From an uncultured Staphylococcaceae bacterium (GTDB lineage Bacteria; Bacillota_I; Bacilli_A; RFN20; CAG-826), in the NCBI GenBank assembly GCA_964497235.1, contig CAZCCJ010000005.1:371-64370 (forward strand): a stretch of DNA of 64,000 nt. The letters run 5' to 3'. Numbering within the stretch: position 1 is the first letter of the stretch; every line of letters starts with the position of its first letter. The notes under the pieces are model-generated. The model searched no databases, had not been told where the DNA came from, and saw nothing but the letters and a program-made list of their open reading frames with translations. Of the stretch, positions 12,714-55,920 are shown in pieces. Made by a program: the position numbers and the translations under genes.

Positions 12714-12727
12714 TGTAAACGCTTACA
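12714..12727 (+). promoter_or_regulatory. cre-like (CcpA/LacI-type) operator
   Basis: TGTAAACGCTTACA fits WTGNAANCGNWNNCW at every constrained position. It lies 4 nt before the AAAGGAG ribosome-binding site of the 12745 gene. Confidence 0.5.
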
Positions 12728-12744
12728 TGCAAAGGAGTTTCTTT

Positions 12745-14775
12745 ATGAAGAAGAACAGAAAACTTTTGTTGGCTAGCAGCGTGGCTCTTTCGGGCCTCTT
12801 AGTCGCCGGCGTCGTATCAGCCAGCGTTAAGGGGAACATTGGCCTTTTGGGCGCGGACGATTATTCGAGTGTAAAATCGATCGCGATCACCTTCACAGCT
12901 GAAGATTTCGCCAGCGGCGTAACGACAATCACCAAAAACGGCAATCCATTTAACGTCGTCGGCGACGTCTCCGTCAAAGATGGCGTCATAACGTTCGCCA
13001 AAGATGCCGGTCTAACTAGAACCGTGACCGATGGAACGGCATCGGGTATCTACGTCGGTGCCAGCTTGTTCTATGAAATGAGCATCACTGGTTTGACGGT
13101 CGATACCCCAAGCCAATCCGTCAATCATGCTGGCAAAACTCGCACATGGTATAACGTCATCAACGATAGAGGAAGTGGCGATGGCCGTGGACTATATTCC
13201 TCAAGCGCTGAGGCTGATGCAGTCGGCTATCACGATATCTCACACACTTGGAGTAATGACCGTGACGATAACGACCCAAGCGCATTCTGGATTGAAACGT
13301 CAAAACCGGATTTGGTCGCCACGGGCGGTGCTTTCTCGTTTAAGACCCTAACGCTTAAATATGAATGCGTGCGTAGCGATAAAACCTATCAAAAGATCAT
13401 GTTCAACAACTCCCGCAACGAATTCAAGTTTGTGGGCAAAAACGGCGACGCCATCGCTCCGATCGCGGCTGTCGGCGAAACTCTTGAGTTTAAGCTGGAC
13501 GTCGATCCTTCTTACGCCAAGAGATACGATATCGCCGTCACTTATTCGAACTTCCGCGATTCCACGACCGCTAAAACGACTTTGACGCCGAATTCTGATG
13601 GCGTGTATTCGCTCGTTCTCTCTAATTCCTATGTCGAAGGGAACACTTCGGATTATACGTATTTATATGCGACCCCGACTGCGAAAGCCTCGACCGCCAT
13701 TTCCTCGGCTGCCGAATTCGCTGCCATGGAAGAGGATGGCATTTATCATTTGACGGCGGACATTGATTTAGGTGACAATGCTCCGTTGGAATCTTTCTCA
13801 GGCGTATTGGATGGCAGTGGGCATCGTATTTATAGCGGAAAACGCAGGACAGGCGGCCCGGCTTGTGGTTTATTCAAAGAACTAAAGGGCCTTGTCCGTA
13901 ACGTCGTCACGGATTTCAATATCGACTATTATGGCTATATCGGCGGTGGAATCTGCGGAACTTTGGATGGCGGTATTATCGAAGACGTGACCGCACATAC
14001 GATTTTCCGTTGGAAGATAGATGGCCAATGCGGAGGCATCGCAGCCACCGCGACAAATGGCGCGTTGATTAGAAATTCGACCGTCTATTTCTTGAGCAAA
14101 GCGATGGACAAATCCGTCGAAGAGCCGATTGGCACTGTCGTTGGCAACCTCGGCGAGAACTGCGTTGTGGATAATGTGAAAGTCAAGATTCCAGCCGCAT
14201 TCGACGCTTCCAAACTTGAAGTTGTTCGTTCTTCCGAAAACAAAGGAACAGTCACGAATTGCTCAATCGTCAATTATCAAGAGAAGGCGCTTGACGACGC
14301 TCTTTATGAGGGCGGCGAAGAGACGACGGAAACATATAATGGCATGCCATTGAGAAAGAAAACTTTCACTGCCGTCAATGATGGAACCGAATTCCTTAAT
14401 AGCACGTATGATCTTAATCAAATCAAAACGGCTTCTTTCTTCTTGAAGATCACCGAACTAAAAGCAGGAGGTTCAGCTGATTCGTTAGCGGATCTCGACT
14501 CGTTTGCAATAACCGGCGGCTCTAACTACATCCATCGTTCGACGGAAGGTCGCGAAGCGTGGAATTACGTCGAGATCAGGAAGATCGCCGACAATGAATT
14601 CACGGTTTACACGGTTATGTTGACGCCTAATACGACTTATTTTTCGGCAGCCGAATTCGCTGATAGAACAGGAGACGCGGGTGGCAACCTTCTTAGTTCT
14701 TTCACCGGAATCTACAGTTGGAAAGGCGTCAATACCATGACGATTTACTCAACTCCGTTATACGTAGAAAAATAA
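12745..14775 (+). CDS. Secreted/anchored surface protein with a GLUG-like central module; paralogue of the C-terminal half of the 24470 gene product
   Basis: Signal peptide MKKNRKLLLASSVALSGLLVAGVVSA. FSGVLDGSGHRIY matches FSGRLNGLGHRVY in the 24470 protein. The C-terminus CSIVNY...YNGMPL...WNYVEIR...STPLYVEK is collinear with CSIVKH...YLGMPL...WNYFELR...STPLYLSEK. Confidence 0.7.
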   Translation: MKKNRKLLLASSVALSGLLVAGVVSASVKGNIGLLGADDYSSVKSIAITFTAEDFASGVTTITKNGNPFNVVGDVSVKDGVITFAKDAGLTRTVTDGTASGIYVGASLFYEMSITGLTVDTPSQSVNHAGKTRTWYNVINDRGSGDGRGLYSSSAEADAVGYHDISHTWSNDRDDNDPSAFWIETSKPDLVATGGAFSFKTLTLKYECVRSDKTYQKIMFNNSRNEFKFVGKNGDAIAPIAAVGETLEFKLDVDPSYAKRYDIAVTYSNFRDSTTAKTTLTPNSDGVYSLVLSNSYVEGNTSDYTYLYATPTAKASTAISSAAEFAAMEEDGIYHLTADIDLGDNAPLESFSGVLDGSGHRIYSGKRRTGGPACGLFKELKGLVRNVVTDFNIDYYGYIGGGICGTLDGGIIEDVTAHTIFRWKIDGQCGGIAATATNGALIRNSTVYFLSKAMDKSVEEPIGTVVGNLGENCVVDNVKVKIPAAFDASKLEVVRSSENKGTVTNCSIVNYQEKALDDALYEGGEETTETYNGMPLRKKTFTAVNDGTEFLNSTYDLNQIKTASFFLKITELKAGGSADSLADLDSFAITGGSNYIHRSTEGREAWNYVEIRKIADNEFTVYTVMLTPNTTYFSAAEFADRTGDAGGNLLSSFTGIYSWKGVNTMTIYSTPLYVEK

Positions 14776-14795
14776 AGCAATCCCCATCAAAAACT

Positions 14796-14826
14796 AAAAA
14801 AGCCGTGCAAAACACGGCTTTTTTTG
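14796..14826. terminator. Bidirectional rho-independent terminator
   Basis: aagccgtg-caaaa-cacggctt is flanked by an A-run and a T-run, between convergent genes. Confidence 0.7.
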
Positions 14827-14837
14827 GTGCGATTGAA

Positions 14838-15689
14838 TTAATAAGTAGACCTTTTCCTATAAGCTCCGGGCGTCATTCCAAATTCTTTTTTGAAGTCGGC
14901 GTTAAACTGAGAAAGGTTGGAAAAGCCGACTTTCGAGGCGATTTCGCTTATTGAGATGCCACTATTGATGAGCAAGCTTGATGCATACCTCAATTTGGTC
15001 TTAATAAGAAAATCGTGCGGAGTCATATCGAAATTCTTTTTGAACAAACGGTTAAGCTGAACCCTGGAGTAGTTGAGTTTTTCACATAGATCGGAAACGG
15101 AGAACAAAAGGAAAGAGGGGTCTAGCGACAATTCGTTGACCGTTCGTTCAAAAGAAGAACGGTTAGGTGGCATTTTTATCATATTCAAATACAGACGTTG
15201 GATGGCAAGCAACGCCGCCGCACAGGCGATTTCATTCGTTTCAAGAGCCGTCGAAGAGCGGGTGTTCGCGCAATGTATGATCGAGGAGATGTCGAGGACA
15301 AATTGCTCGCTCACCTTGTAGCAATGTTCTCCTTCGATTAGCTTTTCTTTCAGATTCGGGGATATGGCATTCAATATCGGCAAAAGCGCGCTTTCTCTGG
15401 CCGTTATGTTGATGTAGCGGGGGTTCGCCTCGCCTATTTTATGAAGGGAATGAACGTCTTTTGTCGTCGCATAGAACAAAGTGTTTTTAGGACAGATATA
15501 CTTCTTGCCATTCAATCTATTTTCCAACGTTCCGTCCGTGACTATCGTGAATTCCCAGAAATCCAAATGCTCATGGAGCCTAGGATAATCGAAGGTGTTG
15601 ATATGGAAACCGAAAGAAATAAGATCCTCCTCATCGATTTCGGAATCCGGTATCCCTTGCTTCAAACAAAGATGCTCTAACGTTTCCAT
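14838..15689 (-). CDS. AraC-family transcriptional regulator (cupin sensor plus HTH)
   Basis: N-terminal HEHLDFWEFTIVTDG cupin motif. C-terminal dual HTH (SVSDLCEKLNYSRVQLNRLFKK...ISEIASKVGFSNLSQFNADFKKEFGMTPGAYR). Confidence 0.85.
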   Translation of the reverse strand: METLEHLCLKQGIPDSEIDEEDLISFGFHINTFDYPRLHEHLDFWEFTIVTDGTLENRLNGKKYICPKNTLFYATTKDVHSLHKIGEANPRYINITARESALLPILNAISPNLKEKLIEGEHCYKVSEQFVLDISSIIHCANTRSSTALETNEIACAAALLAIQRLYLNMIKMPPNRSSFERTVNELSLDPSFLLFSVSDLCEKLNYSRVQLNRLFKKNFDMTPHDFLIKTKLRYASSLLINSGISISEIASKVGFSNLSQFNADFKKEFGMTPGAYRKRSTY

Positions 15690-15711
15690 CTATATCAAGA
15701 TAAAACATTCA

Positions 15712-15731
15712 ATGGAACAAAACAATATAGT
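15712..15731 (+). promoter_or_regulatory. Second copy of the 20-bp box (candidate AraC operator)
   Basis: atggaacaaaacaatatagt lies in the 140-bp divergent region between the AraC gene and the GH130 operon. Confidence 0.35.
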
Positions 15732-15833
15732 CATGGTCAAAAGCGTGCTTTCCATGAAAGGGGTTTCAAAACACAATTACGATGTATCAAAATGAGATAG
15801 TGGCAATTAGGCCAAAATGTTTTGGAGGCAATG

Positions 15834-16868
15834 ATGATGAAATTGAAGAAATATGCCGATAATCCGATACTTTCGCCCAACCCAGACCTCGATTGGGAAA
15901 GTTTTTGCGTTCTTAACCCGGCCGTCATATTCGATAAGGAAAAAGAAAAATTCGTGATGTTATATCGCGCAGCCGGCAGTGAAACAAAACACATAATCCG
16001 TTTAGGACTAGCCACAAGCAAGGACGGAATTCATTTCGAACGTGAGAGCGATAAACCCATTTTTGACGTTGACCCTAACGACGCCGATGGCGGTTGCATC
16101 GAGGATCCAAGGCTCATCGAAATGGATGGCTATTATTATTTGACGTACGCTTCGAAGCCATTTTACGTCGGCCGTTATTGGCTAGACAGAAAGGAGCGAT
16201 GGGACGCTTCTTTGGGCTGCCCATATCCCGAAGGCCCTAGCGAGCCGAAATTCATAAGGGAAAGGCATACGACTACATATTTGGCTTACACCAAGGATTT
16301 CAAGAATTACAAGCGCTTGGGCCGCATCACAGATTCCCGTTATGACAATCGCGATTGCGTTTTGTTCCCTGAGAAAGTAAATGGGAAGTTCGTCAAGATC
16401 GACCGTCCATACCGCGATGGACCGAATCCATCGATGTGGATCACCTATAGCGACGACATGCTTGAGTGGGGTGAACCGACCCTTTTATACAAGGTCGGCG
16501 GAGAAAGATGGGAAAGCGAGCGCATCGGCGCCGGCTGTCCTCCGTTAAAGACCGACGAAGGCTGGTTGCTCTTATACCATGGAGTTTCTTTGGAAGACCA
16601 TAAATATCGTATAGGATTCATGCTTTTGGATGGCAATGATCCGATGAAAATCCTTGCGAAAACCAAGGATTTCGTGATGGAACCGGAATTTGAATACGAA
16701 TCAAGCGAAATGTATCCCGGCTGCGTTTTCCCGACGGGTTGGGTCAATAAAGATGGCGTTTTGTATATATATTATGGTTGTGGCGATAAACACATATCGC
16801 TAGCCACTTCGAGCGTCGAGGAGATTCTCGAAGAACTTCATAAACCCGAAAACAAATACAACAAATAG
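15834..16868 (+). CDS. GH130-family glycoside phosphorylase/hydrolase (beta-mannoside type), cytoplasmic
   Basis: NPILSPNPDLDWESFCVLNPAVIF...MLYRAAG...IRLGLATSKDGIHFER...GGCIEDPRL...YYYLTYAS is the typical GH130 five-bladed propeller N-terminal pattern. No signal peptide. The start is one of the ATGs at 15831-15837, after GGAGG. Confidence 0.85.
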   Translation: MMKLKKYADNPILSPNPDLDWESFCVLNPAVIFDKEKEKFVMLYRAAGSETKHIIRLGLATSKDGIHFERESDKPIFDVDPNDADGGCIEDPRLIEMDGYYYLTYASKPFYVGRYWLDRKERWDASLGCPYPEGPSEPKFIRERHTTTYLAYTKDFKNYKRLGRITDSRYDNRDCVLFPEKVNGKFVKIDRPYRDGPNPSMWITYSDDMLEWGEPTLLYKVGGERWESERIGAGCPPLKTDEGWLLLYHGVSLEDHKYRIGFMLLDGNDPMKILAKTKDFVMEPEFEYESSEMYPGCVFPTGWVNKDGVLYIYYGCGDKHISLATSSVEEILEELHKPENKYNK

Positions 16869-16882
16869 GAAGGAGCATCGAA

Positions 16883-19800
16883 ATGAGAAAAAAGATAATT
16901 CCATTATTGGTTCTGGTCCCCGCTTCATTAGCTGTCGCCGCCTCTTCTTTCTCCTCCTTGGAAGTGGCTGCGGAAGCTTCAACGAAGGACTTGTTTGATT
17001 ATTCGACGAAACTCCTTAAGACCAAAGAGGGATATGTCGATCCATCGACCGGCAAAAAGGGCCTACTCATGTATGGATACGAGAAAGGCATGTCGGCAAC
17101 CTTCAAAACCCCATTCGACGGCATCTTCACATCAGAGATAATCGCCATCAAGGAAAACGGCAACCCATCGGTTGGGAACTACACTTTGACGTTTACCGAC
17201 GTCGAGACCTCGAAATCGTTCAAACTAGGCGTCTATGGCTATAGCGACTATAGTTACGCTTATATCGAAGTCGACGGCGAGAAAGCTGGAATCTTTTATT
17301 ATCATACCGACTGGAGCAATACCGACGCCGCGATTTGCTACACCGCCGGTTATAATGCCTCCAATATCTACACAAAAATCGCGGGTCAGGATCTTAAGAT
17401 GCAATTCGACCCATCGACGATGGCCGTGAAAGCGGTCACGCCCGATGGCGCGTATCATGATGTTTGGAATTTCTCGTCAATCTATAACGATGGAAAGAGA
17501 TTGGAAAACGACTTGGGGAATTTCGCCAGTTATACCGTCACTTTAACCTTTGAAAGCATCACGAATTACACATTGTCTCCTCTTTTGGTGACGAATTTCG
17601 GCGGATATTCGTTCGAAGAGCCGTTATCGGATGTCAAATCGAGCATCAGAGCCTCCTTCAAATCCAAAGCGGTCGCTTTGCACGAATATACGCTTCCGAC
17701 GCCGATAGCGTCCAACCCGATCAAAGGGGTTCTCGATGATTCGAAGATGTCCGTCAAAGTCTATGACGCCGATAAAAATTTAGTGGCCGAAGCGCTCAAA
17801 TTCACGCCAGCGAAGGCCGGCGATTACTTCGTCGTCTATCAATATAGCGACGATACCGAGACCATCTCCCGCATATTCAAACTTCCGGTTCTTGAATCAT
17901 CCTCCGTCGACTACAGTTTCAGTTTCGATGAGACGTATTCCCTAGATATAAGCAATACCTATGGACTGCATAAGGAAGTTTATCTTCCGAAATCGAAGAT
18001 AAAGAGCAACCTCTCGCTTGCGTCATCGCCTGAAGAAGCGGTGATTCGCATCAAGAAAGACGGCGTGGCATTACCAGATTACAATGGCGTGCGCGGCGGA
18101 TTTTCCTATAGCTTCGATCAATATGGCGAATATGAGATAAGCTACGAATCGTCGAACAACGACGGCGTGAAAGATTCGAGAATCGTCAAAATCGAAAAAG
18201 AAGTGGCGTCGCTCGTGACAGATAATTCGACATCGCATAAGAAAGGCGATTCTTTTGCCTTGAAAGATGGCAAAGTGTATCAAAACGACAAGGAATACGT
18301 CGCTACTCCAACTCTTTATTACCCATCTGGCAAATCGGCCGCCGGTGATGTGACTCTAAGCGAAAGCGGCAAATATTCCATCCAATACGAATATGAAATA
18401 GACGGAGCAAAGAAATATCTATCGGAAACATTCTATATCTATGATGAGAAGGCTTCTTTATTCGAAAGCGAAGGGGCAAGCGGAGTGAGCTACGAAACCT
18501 ACGCCTATGACAATCGCTATAAAGGAGTGAAGCTTTCTTTGGCGGATAACTCGAAAGTCGTCTATAAGAAAACGATAGATCTTAACGACAACAGATTCGA
18601 TGAGACATTGGATGACTTAAGTCAAAATACGAAGTTATTGGAACTACGTTACGCCGCCCATGGCGTCGGAAGCGTCGACGCAGAGACCGTTTACGTCACT
18701 TTGACAGACGCCGACAACAAAGACAATTACGTCATGATTCGTATGAAATACTTGGCTTATATGCCACGTTTCACGAGAATTCGCGCCAAAGCGGTCGGTC
18801 AAGGCTGGGTCGGATATTATTATGACTTTGATACCGGTGATTTAGGACAAGTGGACAACGCCCAAGTCCATGAAGATGGCGGATTCATAGCCGATTTCGA
18901 TATGTCCGGCATGGCAAATGGCAGAAGCACCGACGAGACGTCGCTTCAATTATATTTTGATAATGACACAGGCCGTTTATACTCGAGGCCATGGCAATTA
19001 TACGGAACGGCTGATGGCTATAAGGACAACCGCGTTTCCTGGCTCGTCCGCGATTTCTCGACGAGCGATTCGATCCTTTCCGGCGGCGATACGGCCTGGA
19101 CGGGATTCGGAAGCGGCAAGGTCGAGCTCGCAATCCACGCGACCAGCATTTCCTCGACGGCCGATTACTACGTGACGGAAATCGACGGAGAGAAACTCGA
19201 TAACGAGTACATCGCCGATGAGCAAGGGCCTGCGATAAACGTTTCCGATGACGAGCTTCCGAAAGGCGAGGTCGGCAAACTATACCGCTATCCATCTTTT
19301 GATGTGAGCGACTCTTCCGGCGTCGCTTCTAAAAAGACGCTTGTATACCTTGGCAACACCTTAGTGGCCGATGGAGGGGAAGGATTCACGCCGACAAGCA
19401 GCGGCACCTATCGGCTTCTTATGACCGCCAGCGACTATTTCGGCAATCAATCCTCGGTCGAGAAGAAGATCGAAGTGCTTTCCTATAGCGATCCTCTTTC
19501 GATAACGTTAGATGGAGAAGTGCCGTCGAGCGCGACTTTGGGAAGCTATATAACCCTTCCTAAATTCTTGGTTAGCGGTGGCGTTGGAGGATATACGACA
19601 TCCATCTCCGTCACGAGCGGAAACAAAGAAGTGGAAATCGAGAACAACCGCATCTACATCGATCGTTTGACCGATTACATTGTCCGCTTCATCGCGACCG
19701 ATTACGTTGGGAATACTACGAAAATCATTCGTAAAATACAGGGCATAACCGCTCTTGATACACCGGTTTTCGAAGAGTCCGACTTGGATTTGCCGTTAAG

Positions 19801-21121
19801 TCTCTTTGAAGGCGATAGCTATGATCTCACGCGTTTCGTGGCTCCTTATTTCACTAGCGAAGGCGTGATGAGCGAAGTCTCTCCGAAAGTGACGGTGACT
19901 GATGGAAACGGAACGAAAATCCTGTCGTTTGGCGAAGAATACATTCCAGTTTCCTCTGATAGCGTCAAATCGGCGACGATAGAACTTCTTTTCGAGAAAG
20001 ACGGCCATGAGAAGAAGATAAGCAAAGAGATTCCGATCGTTAAGCCGCAAAACGGGAAATTAGGCTTCATGGCCGCTTATTTCGCCGGCGAGAGTTGCTC
20101 AATAGAAGCCACTGACGATGGCGTTGAAGCGACGGCTACGGCGAAAGGAATGCGTTTTGACTTCGCCCGTTCTTTGTTTGGAAAGAAATTCAACATAACG
20201 TGGGATGCTTCGAAAGTAAGCGACCACACTTTGACATTGCGCGATTCAATAGATTCTAGCGAGGCGATCGAACTCCATTTCCACCGCGAAGGAACGAAGC
20301 TATATCTATCGGTCAATGGTGCGAACGACATACGTTTCTATGAAGACGGCGATAACATCATCGGCTTGACGTATAAAGAGTCGGACAAAGGAATATATGA
20401 TTCGAGGGGCAACCTTGTGGCGAGCGTTTTAAACAATGCCGATGGCTCCTCTTTCAACGGTTTTTCCTCAGAATTGCTTCGTTTTGAGTTCGAAAGCGAG
20501 GAAGAGAATTCTTCGATAACCGTCAAGAACATCGACAATCAGATCATCAACAACATCAAAGCGGACCGCATTGGACCGGCCGTTTATTCGACTGGATCAT
20601 TATCGGGTCGTTATAAAGCGGGCTCAATGATCGCCATCCCGAAAGTGATTGGATACGATGTGCTCGGAAACGTCGCCAGCGCTGAGGTAAGCGTCTCTTG
20701 CGATGGGGCGGTGCTAAAGAAGGGGACGCCAGAGGAAGTCGGAGATAGCTTCACTCCAACTGAAATCGGCTCATACCGAATAACCTATACATTCAAAGAC
20801 GAGAAGAACAACCGCTCGACTTATTCCTATTATTTCTCCGTCTATGACGACGTGTCGCCGACATTGACGTTATCATCTCCGATGCCGAAAGAAGCGAAGG
20901 TCGGAGAAAAAGTGGTTCTCCCGGCTTACGTCATTAACGATCAGGATTCTTCAAGCGTCGTCGCCAACATCTATTGCATCGATGCCGATGGCGAGGTGAA
21001 TAACATCACCGACAGCGCTTCTTTCGTGGCGAGCAAACGAGGCATCTACACAATCAATTATTATCTCATTGATCAAAACGGCAACACTGGCTTCTATAGC
21101 TATGAAATCGTCGTGAAATAG
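16883..21121 (+). CDS. Giant (1412 aa) surface protein: array of Ig-like (HYR/DUF5011-like) domains with lectin-like inserts
   Basis: Signal peptide MRKKIIPLLVLVPASLAVAA. The domain-end signature G-x-Y-x-(I/V)-x-Y-x-x-x-D-x-x-G-N recurs (SGTYRLLMTASDYFGN, LTDYIVRFIATDYVGN, IGSYRITYTFKDEKNN, RGIYTINYYLIDQNGN and others). No LPXTG motif. Confidence 0.75.
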   Translation: MRKKIIPLLVLVPASLAVAASSFSSLEVAAEASTKDLFDYSTKLLKTKEGYVDPSTGKKGLLMYGYEKGMSATFKTPFDGIFTSEIIAIKENGNPSVGNYTLTFTDVETSKSFKLGVYGYSDYSYAYIEVDGEKAGIFYYHTDWSNTDAAICYTAGYNASNIYTKIAGQDLKMQFDPSTMAVKAVTPDGAYHDVWNFSSIYNDGKRLENDLGNFASYTVTLTFESITNYTLSPLLVTNFGGYSFEEPLSDVKSSIRASFKSKAVALHEYTLPTPIASNPIKGVLDDSKMSVKVYDADKNLVAEALKFTPAKAGDYFVVYQYSDDTETISRIFKLPVLESSSVDYSFSFDETYSLDISNTYGLHKEVYLPKSKIKSNLSLASSPEEAVIRIKKDGVALPDYNGVRGGFSYSFDQYGEYEISYESSNNDGVKDSRIVKIEKEVASLVTDNSTSHKKGDSFALKDGKVYQNDKEYVATPTLYYPSGKSAAGDVTLSESGKYSIQYEYEIDGAKKYLSETFYIYDEKASLFESEGASGVSYETYAYDNRYKGVKLSLADNSKVVYKKTIDLNDNRFDETLDDLSQNTKLLELRYAAHGVGSVDAETVYVTLTDADNKDNYVMIRMKYLAYMPRFTRIRAKAVGQGWVGYYYDFDTGDLGQVDNAQVHEDGGFIADFDMSGMANGRSTDETSLQLYFDNDTGRLYSRPWQLYGTADGYKDNRVSWLVRDFSTSDSILSGGDTAWTGFGSGKVELAIHATSISSTADYYVTEIDGEKLDNEYIADEQGPAINVSDDELPKGEVGKLYRYPSFDVSDSSGVASKKTLVYLGNTLVADGGEGFTPTSSGTYRLLMTASDYFGNQSSVEKKIEVLSYSDPLSITLDGEVPSSATLGSYITLPKFLVSGGVGGYTTSISVTSGNKEVEIENNRIYIDRLTDYIVRFIATDYVGNTTKIIRKIQGITALDTPVFEESDLDLPLSLFEGDSYDLTRFVAPYFTSEGVMSEVSPKVTVTDGNGTKILSFGEEYIPVSSDSVKSATIELLFEKDGHEKKISKEIPIVKPQNGKLGFMAAYFAGESCSIEATDDGVEATATAKGMRFDFARSLFGKKFNITWDASKVSDHTLTLRDSIDSSEAIELHFHREGTKLYLSVNGANDIRFYEDGDNIIGLTYKESDKGIYDSRGNLVASVLNNADGSSFNGFSSELLRFEFESEEENSSITVKNIDNQIINNIKADRIGPAVYSTGSLSGRYKAGSMIAIPKVIGYDVLGNVASAEVSVSCDGAVLKKGTPEEVGDSFTPTEIGSYRITYTFKDEKNNRSTYSYYFSVYDDVSPTLTLSSPMPKEAKVGEKVVLPAYVINDQDSSSVVANIYCIDADGEVNNITDSASFVASKRGIYTINYYLIDQNGNTGFYSYEIVVK

Positions 21122-21132
21122 GAGGAAAAAAG

Positions 21133-23052
21133 ATGAAAAAAATCACTAAAAGCGCATTATTCGCTTCGACGGTCTTCCTCTTCGCTTTGTCTTCTTGTAG
21201 TCCTGACGTGAAAGATAGCTCTTCCTCAAGCATCGATACGGATTCATCCTCTAGCCGCGCCGAGCCGACTGGCAAATATATCGTGACCAACGGCACGTCG
21301 AGCTATACGATCGTCATCTCAGAAGACGCCGACGCCAATGTCTCGTTCGCCGCGAGCGAGTTACAGAGTTTCTTGAAGGCTTCGACGGACGCCCTCCTTC
21401 CCATCGTTTCCGATTCATCGCTTTCTAGCGTTGACGGCTACTATATTTCTTTGGGCTCGACGAAGATATTCGATCATTACGAGATCACGATACCGGAGAG
21501 CTTAGGAAGAACTGGATACGTGATGAAAAGAATGGACGACACCCTTTTGATCAACGCGATAGACGGCGCTGGCGTCTATAGTGCGGTCTACGACATGCTT
21601 TCCGATGCCATAAACCTAGAGATCTATTCGCACGACGAATACACATACGACACAAAGACGGAAGTGGAGCTATTGGACTACAACGTCGAGTTCGAGCCGC
21701 TCATGGACATGAGAAGGCTTATTCTCAAAAACGTTTCATCGTCCACTCTCTATAGGAGGAGGTTAAGGCTCTATTCGGATCTGCAAAAGGGCAAATGGGC
21801 CGCTTTCGCGCATACGACGATAACCAAATATCTTCCGTATAACACCTATGGAACGGCACATAAAGATTGGTATAACGCGGGCGGAACGCAGGTTTGCTAT
21901 AGCAATCCCGAGGTTCTTAACGCCATAGCCGATGCCATGAAGACTTGCATCCTCGATAACCCTGAGGCCATCTGGATTCAAATGGGACATGAGGATAACC
22001 TCGATATGTGCACTTGCGACAATTGCATCGCGGAGCGCGAACTCTATGGCGGATATGGCGGACAAGAGCTCGAATTCACGAATAAATTAGAGGAAATCCT
22101 CGATCCGTGGCTTGCCAAAGTGGCTCCGGAAAGAAGCATGAAATACGTCTTCTTTGCCTATCAAACGAGTCAAGAACCGCCGGCAAAGTGGGATGAGGCA
22201 ACACAAAAATACGTGCCGGTCTCTTCGAAATTCCGCGTCAATGATAATGTCATGGTCATGTATTGCCCGATCGACGCCGATTTCTCGAAGAAGATGAGCG
22301 ATCCGAAGAACGCCACCCAATACAATCAACTCACCGGTTGGGGCGATATTTTCGATAGCGTCGGAAAACATGGTGAGATTTTCGTTTGGACATATTCGCT
22401 AAGCGCATTGGCTTCGATGGTTCCGCTAAATAACTTCGGCGTCTATGAAGAACATTACGCGTTCTTCTCGAAAGTCGGCGTCAAGCAGATCATAGATCAG
22501 AGCTATTCGGATACCGGAACGCCATCGTTAGAAGCGCTAAAGGCCTACACGCAAGCGAGGCTCATGTATACGCAGAAGGAATCCTATCAGGAACTCGCGA
22601 CGAAATTCATGAACCAATATTACGGCGAAGCGAGGGAGGCGATGAAGAAGTATTACAACCTCCTTCGTTCGCACTATAAATACCTCGAAGAAACGAAAGG
22701 GCTTGGAGCATACGTCAAAAGCGACCTTTATCAATCGAGCTATTGGAGTTATGAGATCCTAAATAAATTCTTCTCCTTGATGGAAGAAGGAATAGAGGCG
22801 ATTTCCGTCATCAAAGAAAGCAATCCGAATAGATACAAGAAACTATACGATCGCCTTCGCACGGAAGAATGCTTCCCGATTTATATGATCCTCCGCTTCT
22901 ACATGAGCGAGCTTTCTCCAAACGAGAAGAAAGAATATTGGAATATCTTCAGCGAATATTCGACGAAAGGCGATATGATCGGATCTGCGGAAAGCACATT
23001 CGATATGAGCGAGCAAATCGAAACTTGGAGGACCTCGATTTTCGGGGAATGA
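21133..23052 (+). CDS. DUF4838-like lipoprotein (putative glycoside hydrolase-like)
   Basis: Lipobox LSSC. N-terminal YTIVISEDADANVSFAASELQSFLK...YISLG pattern. Central HTTITKYLP...VCYSNPEVLN...MGHEDNLDMCTCDNCIAERE...VFFAYQ pattern that I associate with DUF4838. Assigned from memory, so tentative. Confidence 0.65.
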   Translation: MKKITKSALFASTVFLFALSSCSPDVKDSSSSSIDTDSSSSRAEPTGKYIVTNGTSSYTIVISEDADANVSFAASELQSFLKASTDALLPIVSDSSLSSVDGYYISLGSTKIFDHYEITIPESLGRTGYVMKRMDDTLLINAIDGAGVYSAVYDMLSDAINLEIYSHDEYTYDTKTEVELLDYNVEFEPLMDMRRLILKNVSSSTLYRRRLRLYSDLQKGKWAAFAHTTITKYLPYNTYGTAHKDWYNAGGTQVCYSNPEVLNAIADAMKTCILDNPEAIWIQMGHEDNLDMCTCDNCIAERELYGGYGGQELEFTNKLEEILDPWLAKVAPERSMKYVFFAYQTSQEPPAKWDEATQKYVPVSSKFRVNDNVMVMYCPIDADFSKKMSDPKNATQYNQLTGWGDIFDSVGKHGEIFVWTYSLSALASMVPLNNFGVYEEHYAFFSKVGVKQIIDQSYSDTGTPSLEALKAYTQARLMYTQKESYQELATKFMNQYYGEAREAMKKYYNLLRSHYKYLEETKGLGAYVKSDLYQSSYWSYEILNKFFSLMEEGIEAISVIKESNPNRYKKLYDRLRTEECFPIYMILRFYMSELSPNEKKEYWNIFSEYSTKGDMIGSAESTFDMSEQIETWRTSIFGE

Positions 23053-23055
23053 CCT

Positions 23056-24456
23056 ATGAAAAAAATCCTAGTCTTAGCATGCGCAGCGTTGCTATTAGCT
23101 TCTTGCGGAATGTCCGATGGGGCTGATTCAAACGGAAAGGGCAGCGATTCGCCCTCTTCTAGCTCGGTCGTTAGCGACGCTTTCTCATTTGTCGAAAAAG
23201 CGATAACGTTGCCGGAAGACACGACAGCGAAAGTCATATTCGAGAGCTCAAGCAAACCGACTTTCGTCTCAAGCGATTCCTCGGTCGCCGAACTTTCGTC
23301 TGATGGCACTCTCATCGCCAAAAGCGTAGGCACAACCTCGATCACCGGAACCGTCGGGAAGGCTTCCGACGTTCTTTCCGTGACCGTGACCTCCGAAGCG
23401 GATTCCTCGACTACATCCATCCTTTTATCTAAATCGTCATGCGTCCTTTCGCTCGATGGTGAAGTGACGTATCAAATCTCTGCCAAGGTCATCAAAGACG
23501 GCGTGGAAGTGCAAAATCCCGCGATTTCTTTCTCTTCCGCCGACTCTCTTCTGGCGACCGTCTCTTCTTCTGGATTGGTGACGGCGTTAAAGGAAGGCGA
23601 AACGGATATCGAGGTCTCTTATGGAAAACTCACCGCCTCCTTTAAGACGGATATCTACACCAAGGCCATCAAAACGACGGACGATTGGCTGTCGATGATC
23701 GCCGTAAACAACGTCCATGGCGATCGTTATTATTTGGCCAATGATTTGGATTTCTCGGGGATCTCCTATGTCGGATATATCGACATCGGCACGAAGGCCG
23801 ATAGCGATAGGGGATTCGGCGGCGAAGTCAACGGCTTCGGGCATTCCCTTTCAAATATCACCATGGGCACGAATATCAGCTATAACCAATCTTTATTCGG
23901 CTCGATATGCGGGGCGACGATAAGGAACATCGCCTTCGAAAACGTCGTTTTCACGCAAAGCGAGTCTGCCGCGAGATTGAATGGACTCGCCGGATATTCG
24001 TACGTTTATGAATACGATGTCGGCGGTAGCAAACTCGCGAAATTCAATGAGATATCCAACGTCTATATGGAACTCGTTTTCCCTAGCGTGGATGTCGAGA
24101 AGACCGGACTATTCGGAAATGGGTACGCTTATAACATCGACAACCTCTTCTTGGTGATGAAGAACAGCGATGGGAGCGACTTAAATCCCGAGAAATGCGC
24201 TTTGTTGAATGCCTTCCAATACTATTGGTGGGGAAATTCAAACATCGCTTCCTCCGTTCTCTATTGTCCAAATTCCATCGGGTATATTTCGGGGAACGGC
24301 GAACTCGATTCGTTGAAATACGGCACGCTCCAAACGAATAACGCCTATATCGCCTCCAGCGAGATGGACGCAATCTATGGCGCGGCGAATTATCTCGATT
24401 CCGATGTTTGGGATATCCATATGACTTCATTTCCGACTTTGAAAACGAGCGATTGA
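23056..24456 (+). CDS. Lipoprotein with two Big_2 Ig-like domains and a GLUG-like module
   Basis: Lipobox LASC. Big_2 pattern FVSSDSSVAELSSDGTLIAKSVGTTSITG...VTV, seen twice. YYLANDLDFSG...FGGEVNGFGHSLSNITM. Confidence 0.75.
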   Translation: MKKILVLACAALLLASCGMSDGADSNGKGSDSPSSSSVVSDAFSFVEKAITLPEDTTAKVIFESSSKPTFVSSDSSVAELSSDGTLIAKSVGTTSITGTVGKASDVLSVTVTSEADSSTTSILLSKSSCVLSLDGEVTYQISAKVIKDGVEVQNPAISFSSADSLLATVSSSGLVTALKEGETDIEVSYGKLTASFKTDIYTKAIKTTDDWLSMIAVNNVHGDRYYLANDLDFSGISYVGYIDIGTKADSDRGFGGEVNGFGHSLSNITMGTNISYNQSLFGSICGATIRNIAFENVVFTQSESAARLNGLAGYSYVYEYDVGGSKLAKFNEISNVYMELVFPSVDVEKTGLFGNGYAYNIDNLFLVMKNSDGSDLNPEKCALLNAFQYYWWGNSNIASSVLYCPNSIGYISGNGELDSLKYGTLQTNNAYIASSEMDAIYGAANYLDSDVWDIHMTSFPTLKTSD

Positions 24457-24469
24457 AAGGAGAAAAGAA

Positions 24470-27085
24470 ATGAAAAAGCCATTATTGCTCTTGCTTAGCG
24501 CCACTTTCTTGACCGCATTCCTCTCTTCATGCATATCGGCCACGACATACGACGTCACTTTCAAAAATGGTGAAGGATACACGATCGTAGGAAATGCTAA
24601 AGCGACGGAAGGAGAAAACTATTCTTTTACGGTTTCTCTTAGCGAAGGCTACGAAGCCACCTCGTCTTTCCTCGTTCAGGCAAATGGGGAAACGGTCAAT
24701 TTGAGCGGGAACAAATACGTCGTTTCCAACGTGACGAAAAATATTGAAATAACCGTTTCAGGCGTTGATAAAATCACCTATAACATTAGTTTCGTTGAAG
24801 CCAAGGGAATCAAGTTCGAAGGTGAGAAAACGGTCAAATACGGCGAAACGTATTCATTTAAGGCGAACGTTTCGGAGGGATATGATGATTCTTCCATTTC
24901 GATTTTCTACAAGATGGGAGATGCGTCGACGGTCTCGCTCACGCCGGAAATCGGCGGGCTTTATGGCATATCGAACGTCAAAGGCAACCTAATGATTTCG
25001 GCGAATGATTTGAATCTCGAAAGCTATGACGTGACGGCTCCTGAAGATAGCGATAAGTACCAATTTTCCGGCCCCGCCAAAGTCGAATATGGTAGCGACT
25101 ATCGCTTCAGCGTGACGGCGAAAGAGGGGTATGAGTTCTCTAGCATCATCGCCTACGAAGACGAAAAGAACATCTTAACGGCAGAAAGCCTAGGGGATGA
25201 CCAATATAAATTCTCGAGCGTCAAAGGATCACTTAGAATCGTCGTTCAAGGAGTGGGCGTCAAGAATTTCGTCGTCAATAAAGACTTCGATTCATCGCAT
25301 TACACGTTCAAAGGAGCCGATAAAGCCGTTTATGGTGAGGATTACGTCTTCGAACTCTCATTAAAGGGTGGATATTCGAAAGGAAGCAATTACAACTTCT
25401 TGGTGAATGATGCCGATCCAATCGAGCTTTCAAGCGGCAAATACGTCATCCATGACGTCAAATCAACGCCGCATATCGAGGCTTTTGGGGAAGAGATCAT
25501 TCTTTTGAACGTCTCTTTCTCTTGCAACATGTCTTCGGCTCTTAAAAACGCTGAAGACAAAGTGCCTTATTTCCAAAACGAATATCGTTTCAATGTCGAG
25601 CTCGATGATAAATATAGCAACTCAAGTGATTCGATGCTCGTCTATTCGTTGATCGATGGCGTCAAAACGAAGCTCACGAAAAACTCCGATGGAAGCTATT
25701 CGGTCAGCAATCCACACAAGGATTTTGAAATCGTGGTGGAAGGGGTTGATCTCAATAGTTACACCGTCCGTTTCTATAATGGCGATAACAAAGTCTACGA
25801 AGCGAAGGTTTATGACGGCTCCTCGCTTAGCGACGAGCAGCTTTCCGCCGCAAAGACCGCTTACGAAGCGACCTTAGGAGAGAACGAGAAGTTCGACGAT
25901 TGGGAAGAGGATATCTCTTCGATTTCGGGCAATATGAGTGTCCATGGCATAACTATGAAAGCCGTAAGCACCGCCTCCGAATTGGCGGCCATGAGCGATA
26001 CCGGATCATATTATCTAAGCGATGATATAAAAATCTCTTCGCCTTTGAATATTTCTTCCTTCTCTGGCCGCTTAAACGGCTTGGGCCATCGGGTCTATTC
26101 TCTTTCGGATAGCGGCAAGCTCCTTTATAGCGCTGATAACGACATGGGCGTCTTGTTTAAGAATTTCTCCGGAACCCTTAGGAACGTTGAAATAGAGGTT
26201 GGCATCTGCGATTATTCGACTGGCTTATCCGGAATCGCCGATGTCATGGATGCCGGCTTGATCGAAAACGTAATAGTTCGCGCCACATATAAGTCTCAGC
26301 TTTACGTTCCTTCTGGAGCAATGGTGGGAACGCTAAATGGCGGCATCATTAAGGACTCGGCCGTTTATTTCGTGGCCGCAAGTTATGACAATTCGCTTGA
26401 AGAATCCTATAGAAATTGCATTTATCCTTTGGCTGGTTCGATCGTCGGCGGATGTTTCGAGCATGTCACGACGTATGTGCCAGGCGATGTCGATATCTCG
26501 TCGCTAGCGTTAGCGAAAGACGGCGTTTCAACCGATACCGTTCGTTCTTGTTCGATCGTGAAACATGAGTCGAAGAAACTCGACAGCGCGCTCCTTTCCT
26601 TTGGGGCGATTAACGACACGTATTTAGGAATGCCATTGTCCGAAGGAAGCTTCACTGGCGGCTATGGCACAGAATTATTCGCCGCCCTGAATCTATATGA
26701 CGCCAAAATCGATATGATTTCCTTCTTCGTCAAAGCCAAGGAATACCATTATTCATCCACTGAGGACCGATTCACGTTCGGCCTTGACGGTGGTAACGAA
26801 CTAAATCTCACGACGTGCGTCAATGGGGGCAAAACCCATGAGATGTGGAACTATTTCGAACTTCGCCAGATTGGCGATTATAAATATCGCCTATCGATCA
26901 TAGCTTTCGTGGATAGCTCTACCGCCGCCGATTTCGGCAATAATGTGTTCGTGAGCAGCTATATCAAGGAAGTGACGATCAATGAAGGCGATACCCTCCA
27001 ATCCGTAATGGGCAAATTCTATTCGTGGGGTCCTGATTCTACCGTCACCCTTCAATCGACTCCGTTATATCTAAGCGAAAAATAA
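24470..27085 (+). CDS. Lipoprotein (871 aa): five tandem InlB-B-like repeats, a Listeria-Bacteroides-type repeat, a GLUG-like module and a conserved C-terminal domain
   Basis: Lipobox LSSC. Five repeats of about 80 aa, each with ...Y-x-F-x-(V/A)-x-(L/A)-x-x-G-Y.... FSGRLNGLGHRVYSL. C-terminus paralogous to the 12745 protein. Confidence 0.7.
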   Translation: MKKPLLLLLSATFLTAFLSSCISATTYDVTFKNGEGYTIVGNAKATEGENYSFTVSLSEGYEATSSFLVQANGETVNLSGNKYVVSNVTKNIEITVSGVDKITYNISFVEAKGIKFEGEKTVKYGETYSFKANVSEGYDDSSISIFYKMGDASTVSLTPEIGGLYGISNVKGNLMISANDLNLESYDVTAPEDSDKYQFSGPAKVEYGSDYRFSVTAKEGYEFSSIIAYEDEKNILTAESLGDDQYKFSSVKGSLRIVVQGVGVKNFVVNKDFDSSHYTFKGADKAVYGEDYVFELSLKGGYSKGSNYNFLVNDADPIELSSGKYVIHDVKSTPHIEAFGEEIILLNVSFSCNMSSALKNAEDKVPYFQNEYRFNVELDDKYSNSSDSMLVYSLIDGVKTKLTKNSDGSYSVSNPHKDFEIVVEGVDLNSYTVRFYNGDNKVYEAKVYDGSSLSDEQLSAAKTAYEATLGENEKFDDWEEDISSISGNMSVHGITMKAVSTASELAAMSDTGSYYLSDDIKISSPLNISSFSGRLNGLGHRVYSLSDSGKLLYSADNDMGVLFKNFSGTLRNVEIEVGICDYSTGLSGIADVMDAGLIENVIVRATYKSQLYVPSGAMVGTLNGGIIKDSAVYFVAASYDNSLEESYRNCIYPLAGSIVGGCFEHVTTYVPGDVDISSLALAKDGVSTDTVRSCSIVKHESKKLDSALLSFGAINDTYLGMPLSEGSFTGGYGTELFAALNLYDAKIDMISFFVKAKEYHYSSTEDRFTFGLDGGNELNLTTCVNGGKTHEMWNYFELRQIGDYKYRLSIIAFVDSSTAADFGNNVFVSSYIKEVTINEGDTLQSVMGKFYSWGPDSTVTLQSTPLYLSEK

Positions 27086-27096: not shown

Positions 27097-28701
27097 ATGG
27101 ATATTCATAAAATTGTCGATGGGCTTTCCGATGAAGAATTAATCGGGCAGCTCCTTTGCTATGACGTCTATGGCAAGGATGATTTTGAGAAAAACGAGAA
27201 GATATTCAAACATATTCATCCTGGCGCCTTCTTTTTCAAAGGAATGACGGTGGAGCAAATAAAGAAATATAAGGAAACGGCCGAGAAATATGCGCCGCTT
27301 CCGGTTCTAGTTGCTTCTGACGTCGAAGAGGGGCCGGGCTCGATGATCATAGGAGAGCCGACTTTGACGCAAGAGATGGCGTGGGGCGCTGCGAATGATC
27401 CAGATTTGGTCTATGAAGCTGGGGTTGCGATTGGCGAAAGATGTCGCGAATGCGGAATGAATTACAATTTCTCGCCGATTGTCGACCTTTCGTTGAATTT
27501 TGAGTCTCCGACTGTCAATGTCAGGGCGATTAGCGATGATCCAGACGCCGTGATACGCTTAGCGAGCGCTTATGTCAAAGGACTACAGAAAAACGGCAAC
27601 ATGGCGGCAACCATCAAGCATTTTCCTGGCGAAGGCGTGGATTCGAGAAACTCGCACTTCTTAACGACCATCAATCATATGAGCCAAGAAGAATGGATGG
27701 CGAGCTATGGCAAGGTCTATAAAGCCTTGATCGAAGCCGGTTCCTGTAGCGTGATGGTAGGCCATTCATCTCTTCCTTGCTTCGAAGACGAAATCGACCC
27801 GATCTTTGGGCCCAAACCCGCTTGCCAATCGTATAATCTCATTACGAAGCTATTGAAGGGGAAACTCGGTTTCGATGGCGTCGTTGTAAGCGATTCGATG
27901 GCGATGATAGGGGTGGCGGCGAGAGTTGAAAAGACGGAAGACATCGCCATCAATTTCATCAACGCCGGTGGGGATATGGTTCTTTTTCCAGAACCAAATG
28001 ATTTCGACACTTTGCTTTCGGCCCTTCATGATGGCCGAATAAAAAGAGAAAGGGTGATCGATGCCGTCACGCGGATTTTGCGCATGAAGGAAAAACTCCA
28101 TTTGCTCGACAAAGGATTCGTCGTCAAAAAAGAATCAACGAGAAAGATCGAGGAAATCGGGGAGGACATCGCCTCCAAAGCCATCAAAATCGTGAGAAAC
28201 GTCCAAAATGTATTGCCTTTGAATCTTAATAAGGGACAAAAAGTGCTGATGCTCGACGTTTTTGAGCCGTATTTCCATAGGAATCCGGAAGGCGATGAGC
28301 TAAAGGCGTTCAAAGATACGCTTGAATCGTATGGCTTAGAAGTGGATGAGATATTCAATATCGACTATCTCGACGTCGAAAAGATAATAGACAAATACGA
28401 TGCCGTGATCGCTTGCTCGAAGATAAGCTCAAACGATTACCATGGCGGCACAATGAGAGTCGGATGGTATAACATAATGACCTTCTGGCGAGGCTATGTC
28501 CTGAGGCATCCGAAATTCGTCTTCATATCCTTTGGAGATCCGTACAAACTCTACGATTTCCCATATTTGAAGACGTATGTCAACGCTTTCTCTAGCACCT
28601 ATCCAAGCCAAGTTGCGGCCGCGAAAGCGGTCCTAGGCAAGATAAAATGCCAAGGGAAGAACCCGGTCTCCTTCCATCCGTATTTCGAAAGGGAGATATA
28701 A
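27097..28701 (+). CDS. GH3-family glycosidase (beta-hexosaminidase/glucosidase-like), cytoplasmic
   Basis: KHFPGEGVDSRNSH and GFDGVVVSDSMAM (Asp nucleophile context) are GH3 N-domain hallmarks. No signal peptide. Confidence 0.85.
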   Translation: MDIHKIVDGLSDEELIGQLLCYDVYGKDDFEKNEKIFKHIHPGAFFFKGMTVEQIKKYKETAEKYAPLPVLVASDVEEGPGSMIIGEPTLTQEMAWGAANDPDLVYEAGVAIGERCRECGMNYNFSPIVDLSLNFESPTVNVRAISDDPDAVIRLASAYVKGLQKNGNMAATIKHFPGEGVDSRNSHFLTTINHMSQEEWMASYGKVYKALIEAGSCSVMVGHSSLPCFEDEIDPIFGPKPACQSYNLITKLLKGKLGFDGVVVSDSMAMIGVAARVEKTEDIAINFINAGGDMVLFPEPNDFDTLLSALHDGRIKRERVIDAVTRILRMKEKLHLLDKGFVVKKESTRKIEEIGEDIASKAIKIVRNVQNVLPLNLNKGQKVLMLDVFEPYFHRNPEGDELKAFKDTLESYGLEVDEIFNIDYLDVEKIIDKYDAVIACSKISSNDYHGGTMRVGWYNIMTFWRGYVLRHPKFVFISFGDPYKLYDFPYLKTYVNAFSSTYPSQVAAAKAVLGKIKCQGKNPVSFHPYFEREI

Positions 28702-30469: not shown

Positions 30470-30470
30470 A

Positions 30471-31424: not shown

Positions 31425-31444
31425 ACGTTCTCTTTCGAAATGAA

Positions 31445-40203: not shown

Positions 40204-40280
40204 GGTCCATTAGCTCAGTTGGTTAGAGCACACCCCTTATAAGGGTGGGGTCGTTGGTTCAAGCCCAACATGGACCACCA
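40204..40280 (+). tRNA. tRNA-Ile (anticodon UAU)
   Basis: Perfect cloverleaf by hand: GGTCCAT/ATGGACC, D-stem GCTC/GAGC, anticodon arm CACCC-CTTATAA-GGGTG, T-arm GTTGG-TTCAAGC-CCAAC, A73, encoded CCA. Confidence 0.85.
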
Positions 40281-44420: not shown

Positions 44421-44432
44421 CCTAAAGCCACG

Positions 44433-53539: not shown

Positions 53540-53638
53540 ATGATGTCGTATAAAAAGGGTCTTTTTGCGCATTCCAACTATTGATCAGCGGAAATGGCGC
53601 GAACAGAATCGCAAAACAAGAAAGAAAGGATCATCACA

Positions 53639-55885: not shown

Positions 55886-55920
55886 CCTGGGCCAAGCAAC
55901 ATACTTGGCCCAGGTTTTTC
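55886..55920 (+). terminator. Strong rho-independent terminator
   Basis: cctgggccaag-caacata-cttggcccagg (11-bp stem) followed by ttttt. Confidence 0.8.

Follow-up and report, generated by a model that had tools for sequence, protein, structure and literature searches.

A secreted protein with predicted jelly rolls paired with a DUF4838 lipoprotein beside ABC importers in two paralogous cassettes of an uncultured Staphylococcaceae bacterium

Introduction

Gram-positive polysaccharide-utilisation loci (gpPULs) are defined, at a minimum, by an enzyme, a transporter and a regulator (Sheridan et al. 2016, PMC5320581). Here we examine a 64,000-nt stretch of DNA from an uncultured Staphylococcaceae bacterium (contig CAZCCJ010000005.1 of assembly GCA_964497235.1, positions 371 to 64,370 of the forward strand; hereafter the window). 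In it, two gene cassettes each encode a giant secreted protein (A1 and A2), a lipoprotein with a DUF4838 domain (B1 and B2) and a second lipoprotein with Big_2 domains (C1 and C2), close to an ATP-binding cassette (ABC) importer and an AraC-family regulator. The surface enzymes of typical gpPULs are single multi-modular proteins with known carbohydrate-binding modules (CBMs) and LPXTG or surface-layer (S-layer)-homology anchors. A preliminary description of the window, made from the letters alone, had proposed that the A, B and C proteins form an uncharacterised glycan-capture machine.

DUF4838 is the catalytic domain of the CAZy glycoside hydrolase (GH) families GH163 and GH185, and it divides into many clusters in a published network (Bains et al. 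2023, PMC10570127). The GH163 founder, BT1035 of Bacteroides thetaiotaomicron, is an endo-beta-N-acetylglucosaminidase from a PUL for complex N-glycans and cleaves the linkage between N-acetylglucosamine (GlcNAc) and mannose (Man), GlcNAc-β1,2-Man, in complex N-glycans to give N-acetyllactosamine (LacNAc) (PMC10570127); according to a review, the enzyme is found on the cell surface. The GH185 enzyme Sp_0475 of Streptococcus pneumoniae is an exo-acting, retaining 6-sulfo-β-GlcNAcase that uses substrate-assisted catalysis (PMC10570127). Its catalytic set, defined by mutagenesis, comprises H227, D309 and Y436, plus Gln174, and R633 is its sulfate-binding Arg. In GH163 and GH185 a CxCxxC motif lies downstream of beta-4, in a loop that also bears the putative acid/base residue, and fold similarity of Sp_0475 to GH84 and GH115 has been reported. 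The remodelling of N- and O-glycans is the stated motivation for the study of DUF4838 (PMC10570127).

Results

Two cassettes with the same gene order and paralogous A and B proteins

In cassette 1, the open reading frames (ORFs) for A1 (16883-21121, 1412 aa), B1 (21133-23052, 639 aa) and C1 (23056-24456, 466 aa) follow one another on the plus strand with spacers of 11 and 3 nt. Cassette 2 has the same order, also on the plus strand, with A2 (46333-49284, 983 aa) overlapping B2 (49284-51143, 619 aa) by one nucleotide (spacer of -1 nt) and 17 nt between B2 and C2 (51161-53380, 739 aa). The six ORFs of the preliminary description were therefore recovered at exact coordinates and in the same order twice, and all of the peptides quoted there are present in the window proteins.

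BLASTP aligned residues 450-1391 of A1 with residues 33-959 of A2 (27% identity, E 8e-55) and B1 with B2 over their full lengths (29% identity, E 1e-72), similarities far above chance that bear out the paralogy proposed earlier for the giant and the DUF4838-like proteins and make it an old one. C1 and C2, in contrast, were alike only over a Big_2 region of ~175 aa at the N-terminus (E 1e-9), and their C-terminal halves were unrelated. That the cassette occurs twice thus holds for the gene order and for the A and B families, and not for C, in which only the Big_2 N-terminus is common. When the importers were included in the comparison, the identity between modules 1 and 2 was 26% for A, 29% for B, 28% for the binding protein and 36-39% for the permeases. 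Because all five genes differ by similar amounts between the window modules, we conclude that the five-gene block was copied and then diverged as a unit.

Cassette 1 is a packed seven-gene unit (start 15822, end 29557) with gaps of 1-14 nt and the order GH130-A1-B1-C1-U871-GH3-MBL-fold. Its first gene encodes a GH130 beta-mannoside phosphorylase-like protein (15822-16868; PF04041, E 2e-53), and C1 is followed by the lipoprotein U871 (24470-27085), an enzyme with a GH3 N-terminal domain (27097-28701) and, as the last gene of the operon, a metallo-beta-lactamase (MBL)-fold protein (28703-29557), all on the plus strand. The best NCBIfam matches of the GH130 and GH3 proteins, both below the cut-off, were beta-1,2-mannobiose phosphorylase and the NagZ type of beta-N-acetylhexosaminidase, respectively. 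An AraC-family regulator gene (14838-15689, minus strand; HTH_18 with E 2e-24, and AraC_binding) is divergent from the operon, and the importer genes are convergent with it (29570-33187, minus strand; binding-protein lipoprotein at 31445-33187, permeases at 30471-31424 and 29570-30481). In cassette 2, the AraC-family gene (41526-42359, minus strand) is likewise divergent, and the plus-strand unit begins with the importer (42777-46294; binding-protein lipoprotein at 42777-44420, permeases at 44433-45371 and 45368-46294), continues with A2, B2, C2 and a gene for the exported protein U750 (53594-55846) and ends at a strong intrinsic-terminator-like hairpin (55886-55914, plus strand; 11 pairs, 8 of them GC, and a T-run). 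An AraC regulator and an importer, there called LplABC-type, had been noted before at each cassette and were found again, each importer consisting of a binding protein and two permeases nearby. Four tRNAs were the only matches in an Rfam scan of the window, which detected neither a riboswitch nor a leader close to the cassettes.

All six of the A, B and C proteins carry export signals that can be read from the sequence, in agreement with the preliminary description. The signal peptides of A1 and A2 are type-I-like and end in AEA, and neither protein has a C-terminal anchor; B and C have lipoboxes (LSSC in B1, VISC in B2, LASC in C1 and LGSC in C2). The solute-binding proteins of both importers are lipoproteins, as expected in a monoderm. 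The GH130 and GH3 proteins of cassette 1 are without signal peptides, which points to the cytoplasm.

Protein B is a full-length member of the DUF4838 family

Membership of the DUF4838 family was judged by the gathering threshold of PF16126 (26.6 bits) together with coverage of the whole model, and both B proteins pass, B1 with 145.1 bits (E 3.6e-42) and B2 with 133.6 bits (E 1.1e-38), each over model positions 2-325 of 325. DUF4838 was the only domain found in B, apart from a weak GH67N-like N-terminal domain in B2, and the domain scan detected no F5/F8 domain in B1 or B2, although the founder BT1035 has one. Since PF16126 is the catalytic domain of GH163 and GH185, B is not a protein without a function, and the earlier claim that all six lack an assigned function was wrong for B. 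This assignment counts in part against the preliminary description, which was to fail if its giant and DUF4838-like proteins belonged to already characterised systems.

Conservation was counted over 31 and 27 B sequences encoded next to A genes. In B1 numbering, H227, D288, C298, N317, Y343 and W403 are invariant among these 27-31 sequences, C293, C295 and Y421 are conserved in at least 90%, and 29 of 31 have the lipobox Cys (C22 in B1). D288 lies five residues ahead of a C-x-C-x-x-C cluster, C293-T-C295-D-N-C298 in B1, and B2 has the corresponding D286 followed by C291-T-C293-S-R-C296. This agrees with the Cys motif reported beside the putative acid/base residue of GH163 and GH185. The His, Asp and Tyr residues (H227, D288 and Y343 or Y421) are of the same types as the catalytic set of Sp_0475, an equivalence drawn by analogy and with no equivalent of Gln174 identified. 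Searching the PDB with a B-family profile returned no solved DUF4838 structure, only weak matches to GH67, a GH20-named beta-hexosaminidase and GH84, mostly to N-terminal regions. Given these features, B is very probably an active surface glycosidase, and probably one of the retaining beta-N-acetylhexosaminidase type.

Protein A is predicted to be an Ig stalk with two homologous jelly rolls

For A1, searches of Pfam and NCBIfam and a phmmer search of the PDB gave only weak matches of immunoglobulin-like (Ig) type at the C-terminus. AlphaFold2, given 25 homologues, modelled A2 with confidence as an entirely beta protein (predicted local distance difference test, pLDDT, of 85), made up of an Ig domain (residues 33-103), a jelly roll (JR1, residues ~104-330, 46642-47322), three Ig domains (335-605), a second jelly roll (JR2, residues ~606-768, 48148-48636) and two further Ig domains (778-980). 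A1 consists of the same core, with JR1 at residues 520-774 (18440-19204) and JR2 at residues 1054-1223 (20042-20551), preceded by ~450 extra residues. Comparison of the two jelly rolls by hhalign showed that they are homologues (probability 98%, E 1.5e-13). Profiles of the two found nothing meaningful among PDB sequences, and a Pfam scan of 28 JR1 sequences gave no CBM model even at E <= 1.

Modelled alone, JR1 reached a pLDDT of 94.6 and a predicted template modelling (TM) score of 0.92. Its best fold neighbours were a mycobacteriophage baseplate (receptor-binding) protein, legume lectins including concanavalin A (ConA), CBM66, as a weak fold match only, GH16 and the polysaccharide lyase (PL) family PL7. 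Foldseek scored the legume lectin matches at E 1e-3 to 6e-3 and a probability of 0.9-0.99, yet with TM scores of only 0.37-0.41. The most conserved motif of JR1, LTDAYDxNNYV, forms a strand-loop-strand turn in the model and is also retained in JR2. Across the 28 JR1 sequences a single column is invariant (F194), D71 and D81 are conserved in at least 90%, and AGAxxQ, GYE and DLD are further motifs. A fold search with the full-length A2 model was rejected as a guide to function; it returned generic Ig arrays only, among them two S-layer proteins (SbsB and EA1), an adhesin (SraP) and cadherins.

The first 450 residues of A1 (16883-18230) are conserved in the "long" A proteins, that is, in three of the loci described below (L036, L037 and L038) and in the database representatives of ~1360-1900 aa. 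No homology of this extension to JR1, JR2 or any Pfam family was found, and six N-terminally extended homologues had Ig and PKD matches only. The possibility that residues 33-240 are a third copy of the jelly roll was discarded after hhalign comparison with the JR1 and JR2 profiles proved negative.

A represents a new family without sequence matches in Pfam or the PDB. In the models, about six Ig domains form its stalk, which carries two homologous jelly rolls resembling ConA and the legume lectins. At the level of the fold, A is most likely a lectin-type glycan-binding stalk and not an enzyme.

The importer-A-B arrangement is conserved across uncultured gut Bacillota

A word-limited search seeded with A2 yielded 41 homologue clusters, and a scan of GTDB species genomes seeded with a 10-sequence A alignment added 26 loci, from metagenome-assembled genomes (MAGs) labelled Christensenellaceae, Candidatus Scatosoma, Clostridia or Bacilli and from a few others whose labels are doubtful. 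The loci come from uncultured Bacillota of the human, primate, ruminant and poultry gut. The impression of a tiny family given by the 41 clusters was overturned when 1.84 billion cluster representatives were searched exhaustively with a profile, which recovered 3,530 proteins at E ≤ 1e-30. Among the best 150 of these, 149 match almost the whole profile and are either ~1000 aa long or, with an N-terminal extension, ~1360-1900 aa; the sole exception is a repeat protein of 3175 aa, and no entry of the combined length of A and B, as expected for a fusion, stands out among the 150. The A family is thus large and confined so far to uncultured organisms.

In all 31 of the A-seeded loci with downstream DNA (L039 included), ORF-level BLAST showed the gene after A to encode a DUF4838 protein. 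Upstream of A, a binding protein and two permeases are encoded wherever DNA exists, with the exceptions of L022 and of the cassette-1 layout, and seven divergent A members from the 41 clusters (22-32% identity) each show the order binding protein-permease-permease-A-DUF4838. In the reverse test, all four B1-like seeds (37-65% identity) were directly preceded by an A1-type gene (1406-1420 aa). L027 and L030, two diverged copies of the module that each include a separate importer and B gene, come from a single MAG. For 22 modules, the matrices of pairwise identity for A and for B were correlated with r = 0.95 (0.72 for distant pairs), which equals the mutual level of the transporter subunits.

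The third gene was less constant. A Big_2-like N-terminus is present in ~22 of ~29 loci, in proteins of 193-1958 aa, and in the remaining quarter or so the gene is missing or gives way to one for a GH31, for a protein with Flg_new repeats or for uncharacterised proteins. The conserved unit is therefore binding protein-permease-permease-A-B, with C variable. The co-occurrence that the preliminary description had put forward as its own check does extend beyond this genome, as importer plus A and B and not as an A-B-C triad.

Cassette 1 has orthologues in L036 and L040 and a more distant one in L037. Linkage to GH130 is retained in all three, and the convergent importer layout is found in L036 and L040 as well. 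The identity of L036 to cassette 1 is 52% for A, 63% for B, 47% for C, 38% for U871 and 75% for GH130. Full-length A1 orthologues also occur in L037 (31%) and L038 (28%), and a near-full-length C1 orthologue, besides that of L036, in L037 (31%). In L040 a small insertion with an AbiEii-family gene (14659-17576) stands where the window has its GH3 and MBL genes, so the tail of the cassette-1 operon is variable.

The closest relatives of cassette 2 (L010-L014, 56-61% identity) are in MAGs labelled "Bacteroidales", "Paludibacteraceae", "Holdemanella" and "bacterium". These labels look partly unreliable, since binding proteins that are lipoproteins, together with ABC importers, point to Bacillota.

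Accessory surface proteins and neighbouring features

Beside the cassette-1 regulator gene, a gene for an exported protein without a Pfam match, U682 (12727-14775, plus strand), encodes a C-terminal module of ~360-370 aa that is shared with U871 (32% identity, E 1e-44). The module has no Pfam match, and no Pfam family was found for U871 either. Its motif, F-S-G-x-L-[DN]-G-x-G-H-R-[IV]-Y-S, is also present (FGGEVNGFGHSLSN) in the ~265-aa C-terminal domain of C1, which follows the Big_2 domains and is without family assignment. An undescribed surface domain of repeat or beta-helix type is one possible identity of the U682/U871 module. L040 has an unannotated gene of 673 aa at the position of U682, a likeness by position alone.

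In cassette 2, the Big_2 domains of C2 are followed by a different C-terminal module of 420 aa (52061-53380), which is paralogous to the C-terminus of U750 (54551-55846; 33% identity, E 9e-58) and has no Pfam match. Homologues are encoded downstream of the cassette in L002, L012 and L014. U871 and U682 were considered as counterparts of U750 across the cassettes and rejected, as neither shows significant similarity to it.

After the cassette-2 terminator, the window encodes a 247-aa ABC ATPase and a 288-aa protein with six transmembrane segments and no Pfam match (55943-57536). In unrelated MAGs, the pair also stands by importer-A-B modules in L001 (15561-17106), L004 (998-3606), L011 (4405-5998) and L014 (15501-17130), and in L002 the six-transmembrane protein adjoins the module alone (21532-22410); ABC-ATPase clusters in L036 (1001-3614) and in L039 are alike in layout. 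The ATPase of sugar importers is usually of the MsmK type, at ~370 aa, and the 247-aa ATPase is too short for this type. Elsewhere in the window, a tRNA-Ile with the anticodon TAT (UAU) at 40204-40280 adjoins a tRNA-Ser(TGA). AUA is mostly decoded in bacteria by a modified CAU tRNA, and a UAU anticodon is unusual; this tRNA fits a reduced-genome lineage of Bacilli of "Mollicutes-like" kind. The bacterium's purA has at most about 60% identity to any named sequence, the matches coming from MAGs named "Bacilli bacterium" and "Candidatus Enterosoma", and the host is a member of the Bacillota. Two paralogous AAA_14/DUF4143 ATPase genes were also noted (804-2105 and 36104-37291), one of them between tRNA genes. 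Such genes often travel with mobile elements.

Discussion

We think it likely, on balance, that both cassettes serve as extracellular front ends of gpPULs, in which A binds a glycan, B cleaves it and the importer takes up the products. B, a lipid-anchored DUF4838 glycoside hydrolase distantly homologous to GH20 and kin to GH163 and GH185, would cut a linkage of the beta-N-acetylhexosamine (HexNAc) type at the cell surface. A, as a secreted stalk, would bind the complex glycan through JR1 and JR2 and keep it near B and the importer; as it is without an anchor of its own, A would presumably be held at the surface by B, by neighbouring lipoproteins or by both. C, U871 and U750 would then be variable accessory surface modules, the adjacent ABC importer would take up the released oligosaccharides, and in cassette 1 the co-transcribed GH130 phosphorylase-like and GH3 beta-GlcNAcase-like enzymes would finish the breakdown in the cytoplasm. 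Each operon would be induced by its AraC regulator.

The substrate of cassette 1 is probably N-glycan-like, a proposal favoured by the joint presence of GH130, a GH3 and an enzyme of the DUF4838 family. According to a review, GH130 is one of three families that cleave the Man-β1,4-GlcNAc core of N-glycans. The carbohydrate-active enzymes encoded next to related modules are others (GH20 and GH38; GH2; GH31, GH112 and GH127 in L007; GH43 in L008; GH78 rhamnosidases in L038), and because these neighbours differ between loci, the substrate evidently varies from one paralogous module to another. A more far-reaching version is that A and B form an obligate two-protein surface glycosidase, widespread in uncultured gut Bacillota, with A docked on B and the jelly rolls, as a new CBM family, feeding it complex glycans of host or dietary origin. 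Together with the importer, such an arrangement would be a monoderm counterpart of SusCDEFG diversified into many substrate-specific modules. We offer this version tentatively and regard it as doubtful.

Several points weigh against the front-end reading. The data establish gene content, paralogy, strict synteny, predicted domain folds, conserved candidate catalytic residues and export signals; from these we infer that B is catalytically active, that A binds glycan, that A and B touch and what the substrate may be. The catalytic residues of B are assigned only by analogy to BT1035 and Sp_0475. The fold matches of JR1 are weak (TM scores of about 0.4, best E 3e-4), and the ConA-like fold also houses enzymes such as GH16 and PL7, so that binding by A is unproven. 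No anchor is recognisable in A, and its retention at the surface is a conjecture. The mirror-tree correlation may arise from the shared descent of neighbours without physical interaction. Finally, neighbouring enzymes differ strongly between loci, which restricts the N-glycan proposal to cassette 1 at most.

Part of this uncertainty concerns whether A might itself be an enzyme, with one or both jelly rolls as a catalytic domain of a new family, of glycoside hydrolase or polysaccharide lyase type (compare GH16, GH7 and PL7), and with A and B acting in sequence. GH16 glucanases, a xyloglucan endotransglycosylase and PL7 lyases are indeed among the fold matches of JR1, its acidic and polar positions such as D71 and D81 are well conserved, and no known CBM family matches the jelly rolls by sequence. 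The top matches, however, are lectins and receptor-binding proteins, and the ExDxxE strand motif of GH16-type enzymes is absent from JR1. The TDAYDxNN segment sits at a turn and is kept in the shorter JR2, which suggests a structural or metal-site role, and a single invariant column would be unusual for a catalytic domain. An enzymatic A therefore seems unlikely to us.

Lower still is the credence we give to A as a general surface protein, an adhesin or an S-layer-like structural protein that is merely co-transcribed and plays no part in handling the substrate of B. The generic Ig arrays matched by the full-length model, together with the lack of an anchor and of a known binding motif, are what one would expect of such a protein. 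Yet the position of A between importer and B is strict down to ~22% identity, A has diversified together with both, and several genomes have multiple diverged importer-A-B copies, the pattern of substrate-specific modules. As for the capture apparatus of the preliminary description, read as A, B and C acting together without enzymatic activity in the manner of SusD, SusE and SusF, it is true that each of the three proteins is exported, that Ig or Big_2 domains abound in A and C and that an importer is adjacent. B nevertheless belongs to a catalytic glycoside hydrolase family with residues of catalytic type conserved, and C shares only its Big_2 N-terminus between the cassettes, with roughly one locus in four lacking it or having another gene in its place; this makes the apparatus very improbable. 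What survives of the "glycan-capture machine" is a set of exported glycan-acquisition components with AraC regulators and ABC importers; its non-enzymatic parts without function do not, B being a DUF4838 protein. The reading of each cassette as a gpPUL front end, with A as binding partner and B as enzyme, is the one we carry forward.

The locus is of a familiar sugar-harvesting type built around an unstudied protein family and is not a new kind of machine, so that no concept is overturned and a missing component of a known type of system is supplied. Undescribed so far are the A family, in which a lectin-like domain is duplicated, the invariant importer-A-DUF4838 arrangement, the U682/U871 C-terminal module, the C2/U750 module and the C1 C-terminal domain. 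The A family is without a Pfam model, a solved structure or a literature, and glycan foraging by the uncultured gut Bacillota that encode it is largely unstudied. If A is indeed the glycan-binding partner, a new CBM family would be defined, importer-A-B would become a recognisable signature for annotating glycan loci in Gram-positive MAGs, and new DUF4838 enzymes would be candidate tools for N- and O-glycan remodelling.

Comparison with known systems

Like B, the GH163 enzyme BT1035 has a PF16126 domain, is located at the cell surface and belongs to a glycan-utilisation locus, upstream of import; the co-encoded GH130 of cassette 1 is of a family that acts on the N-glycan core. BT1035 differs in its C-terminal F5/F8 (discoidin) domain, which is a feature of the founder and not necessarily of the family, and B is found in monoderm Bacillota with an ABC importer in place of SusC/D. 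B is also always paired with A, and such a pairing is not described for BT1035 in PMC10570127 or in the review cited above. The GH185 enzyme Sp_0475 has in common with B the DUF4838 domain and an origin in Bacillota, and the conserved His, the Asp beside the CxCxxC cluster and a Tyr of B fit its catalytic set by analogy. Unlike the B proteins, nearly all of which have a lipobox, Sp_0475 and its cluster have no signal peptide and are thought to be cytoplasmic (PMC10570127). The preliminary description knew of no characterised example of the arrangement, and this is still the case for the A family and for the A-B pairing in the papers found to mention DUF4838.

The likenesses of A are structural. 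JR1 is a predicted ConA-like beta-sandwich comparable to the legume lectin/ConA-like superfamily at a TM score of ~0.4, with no sequence similarity in Pfam or the PDB. The full-length A2 model matches the ligand-binding region of SraP, a region that combines a lectin module with cadherin-like modules. The Sus systems of Bacteroidota, in which surface glycan-binding proteins of the SusE/F type act with a SusG-type enzyme, follow the same logic, an Ig stalk with CBM-like domains and a lipoprotein glycosidase beside a transporter. The comparison is an analogy only, as there is no outer membrane here and the proteins are unrelated in sequence. A scan of ~35 ORFs from the cassettes and their flanks found no adjacent pair of SusD and SusC, the TonB-dependent transporter, and the transporters here are of the binding-protein-dependent ABC type.

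As whole loci, the cassettes can be compared with the gpPUL. Cassette 1 combines GH130, the DUF4838 enzyme, GH3, an ABC importer and an AraC regulator, and cassette 2 the DUF4838 enzyme, an ABC importer and an AraC regulator. The whole locus thus fits the published definition, and the "uncharacterised machine" of the preliminary description gives way to a known kind of system. Where the cassettes depart from a typical gpPUL is in the division of labour at the surface: the putative binding modules are on a separate, unanchored giant protein, A, and the enzyme, B, is a lipoprotein.

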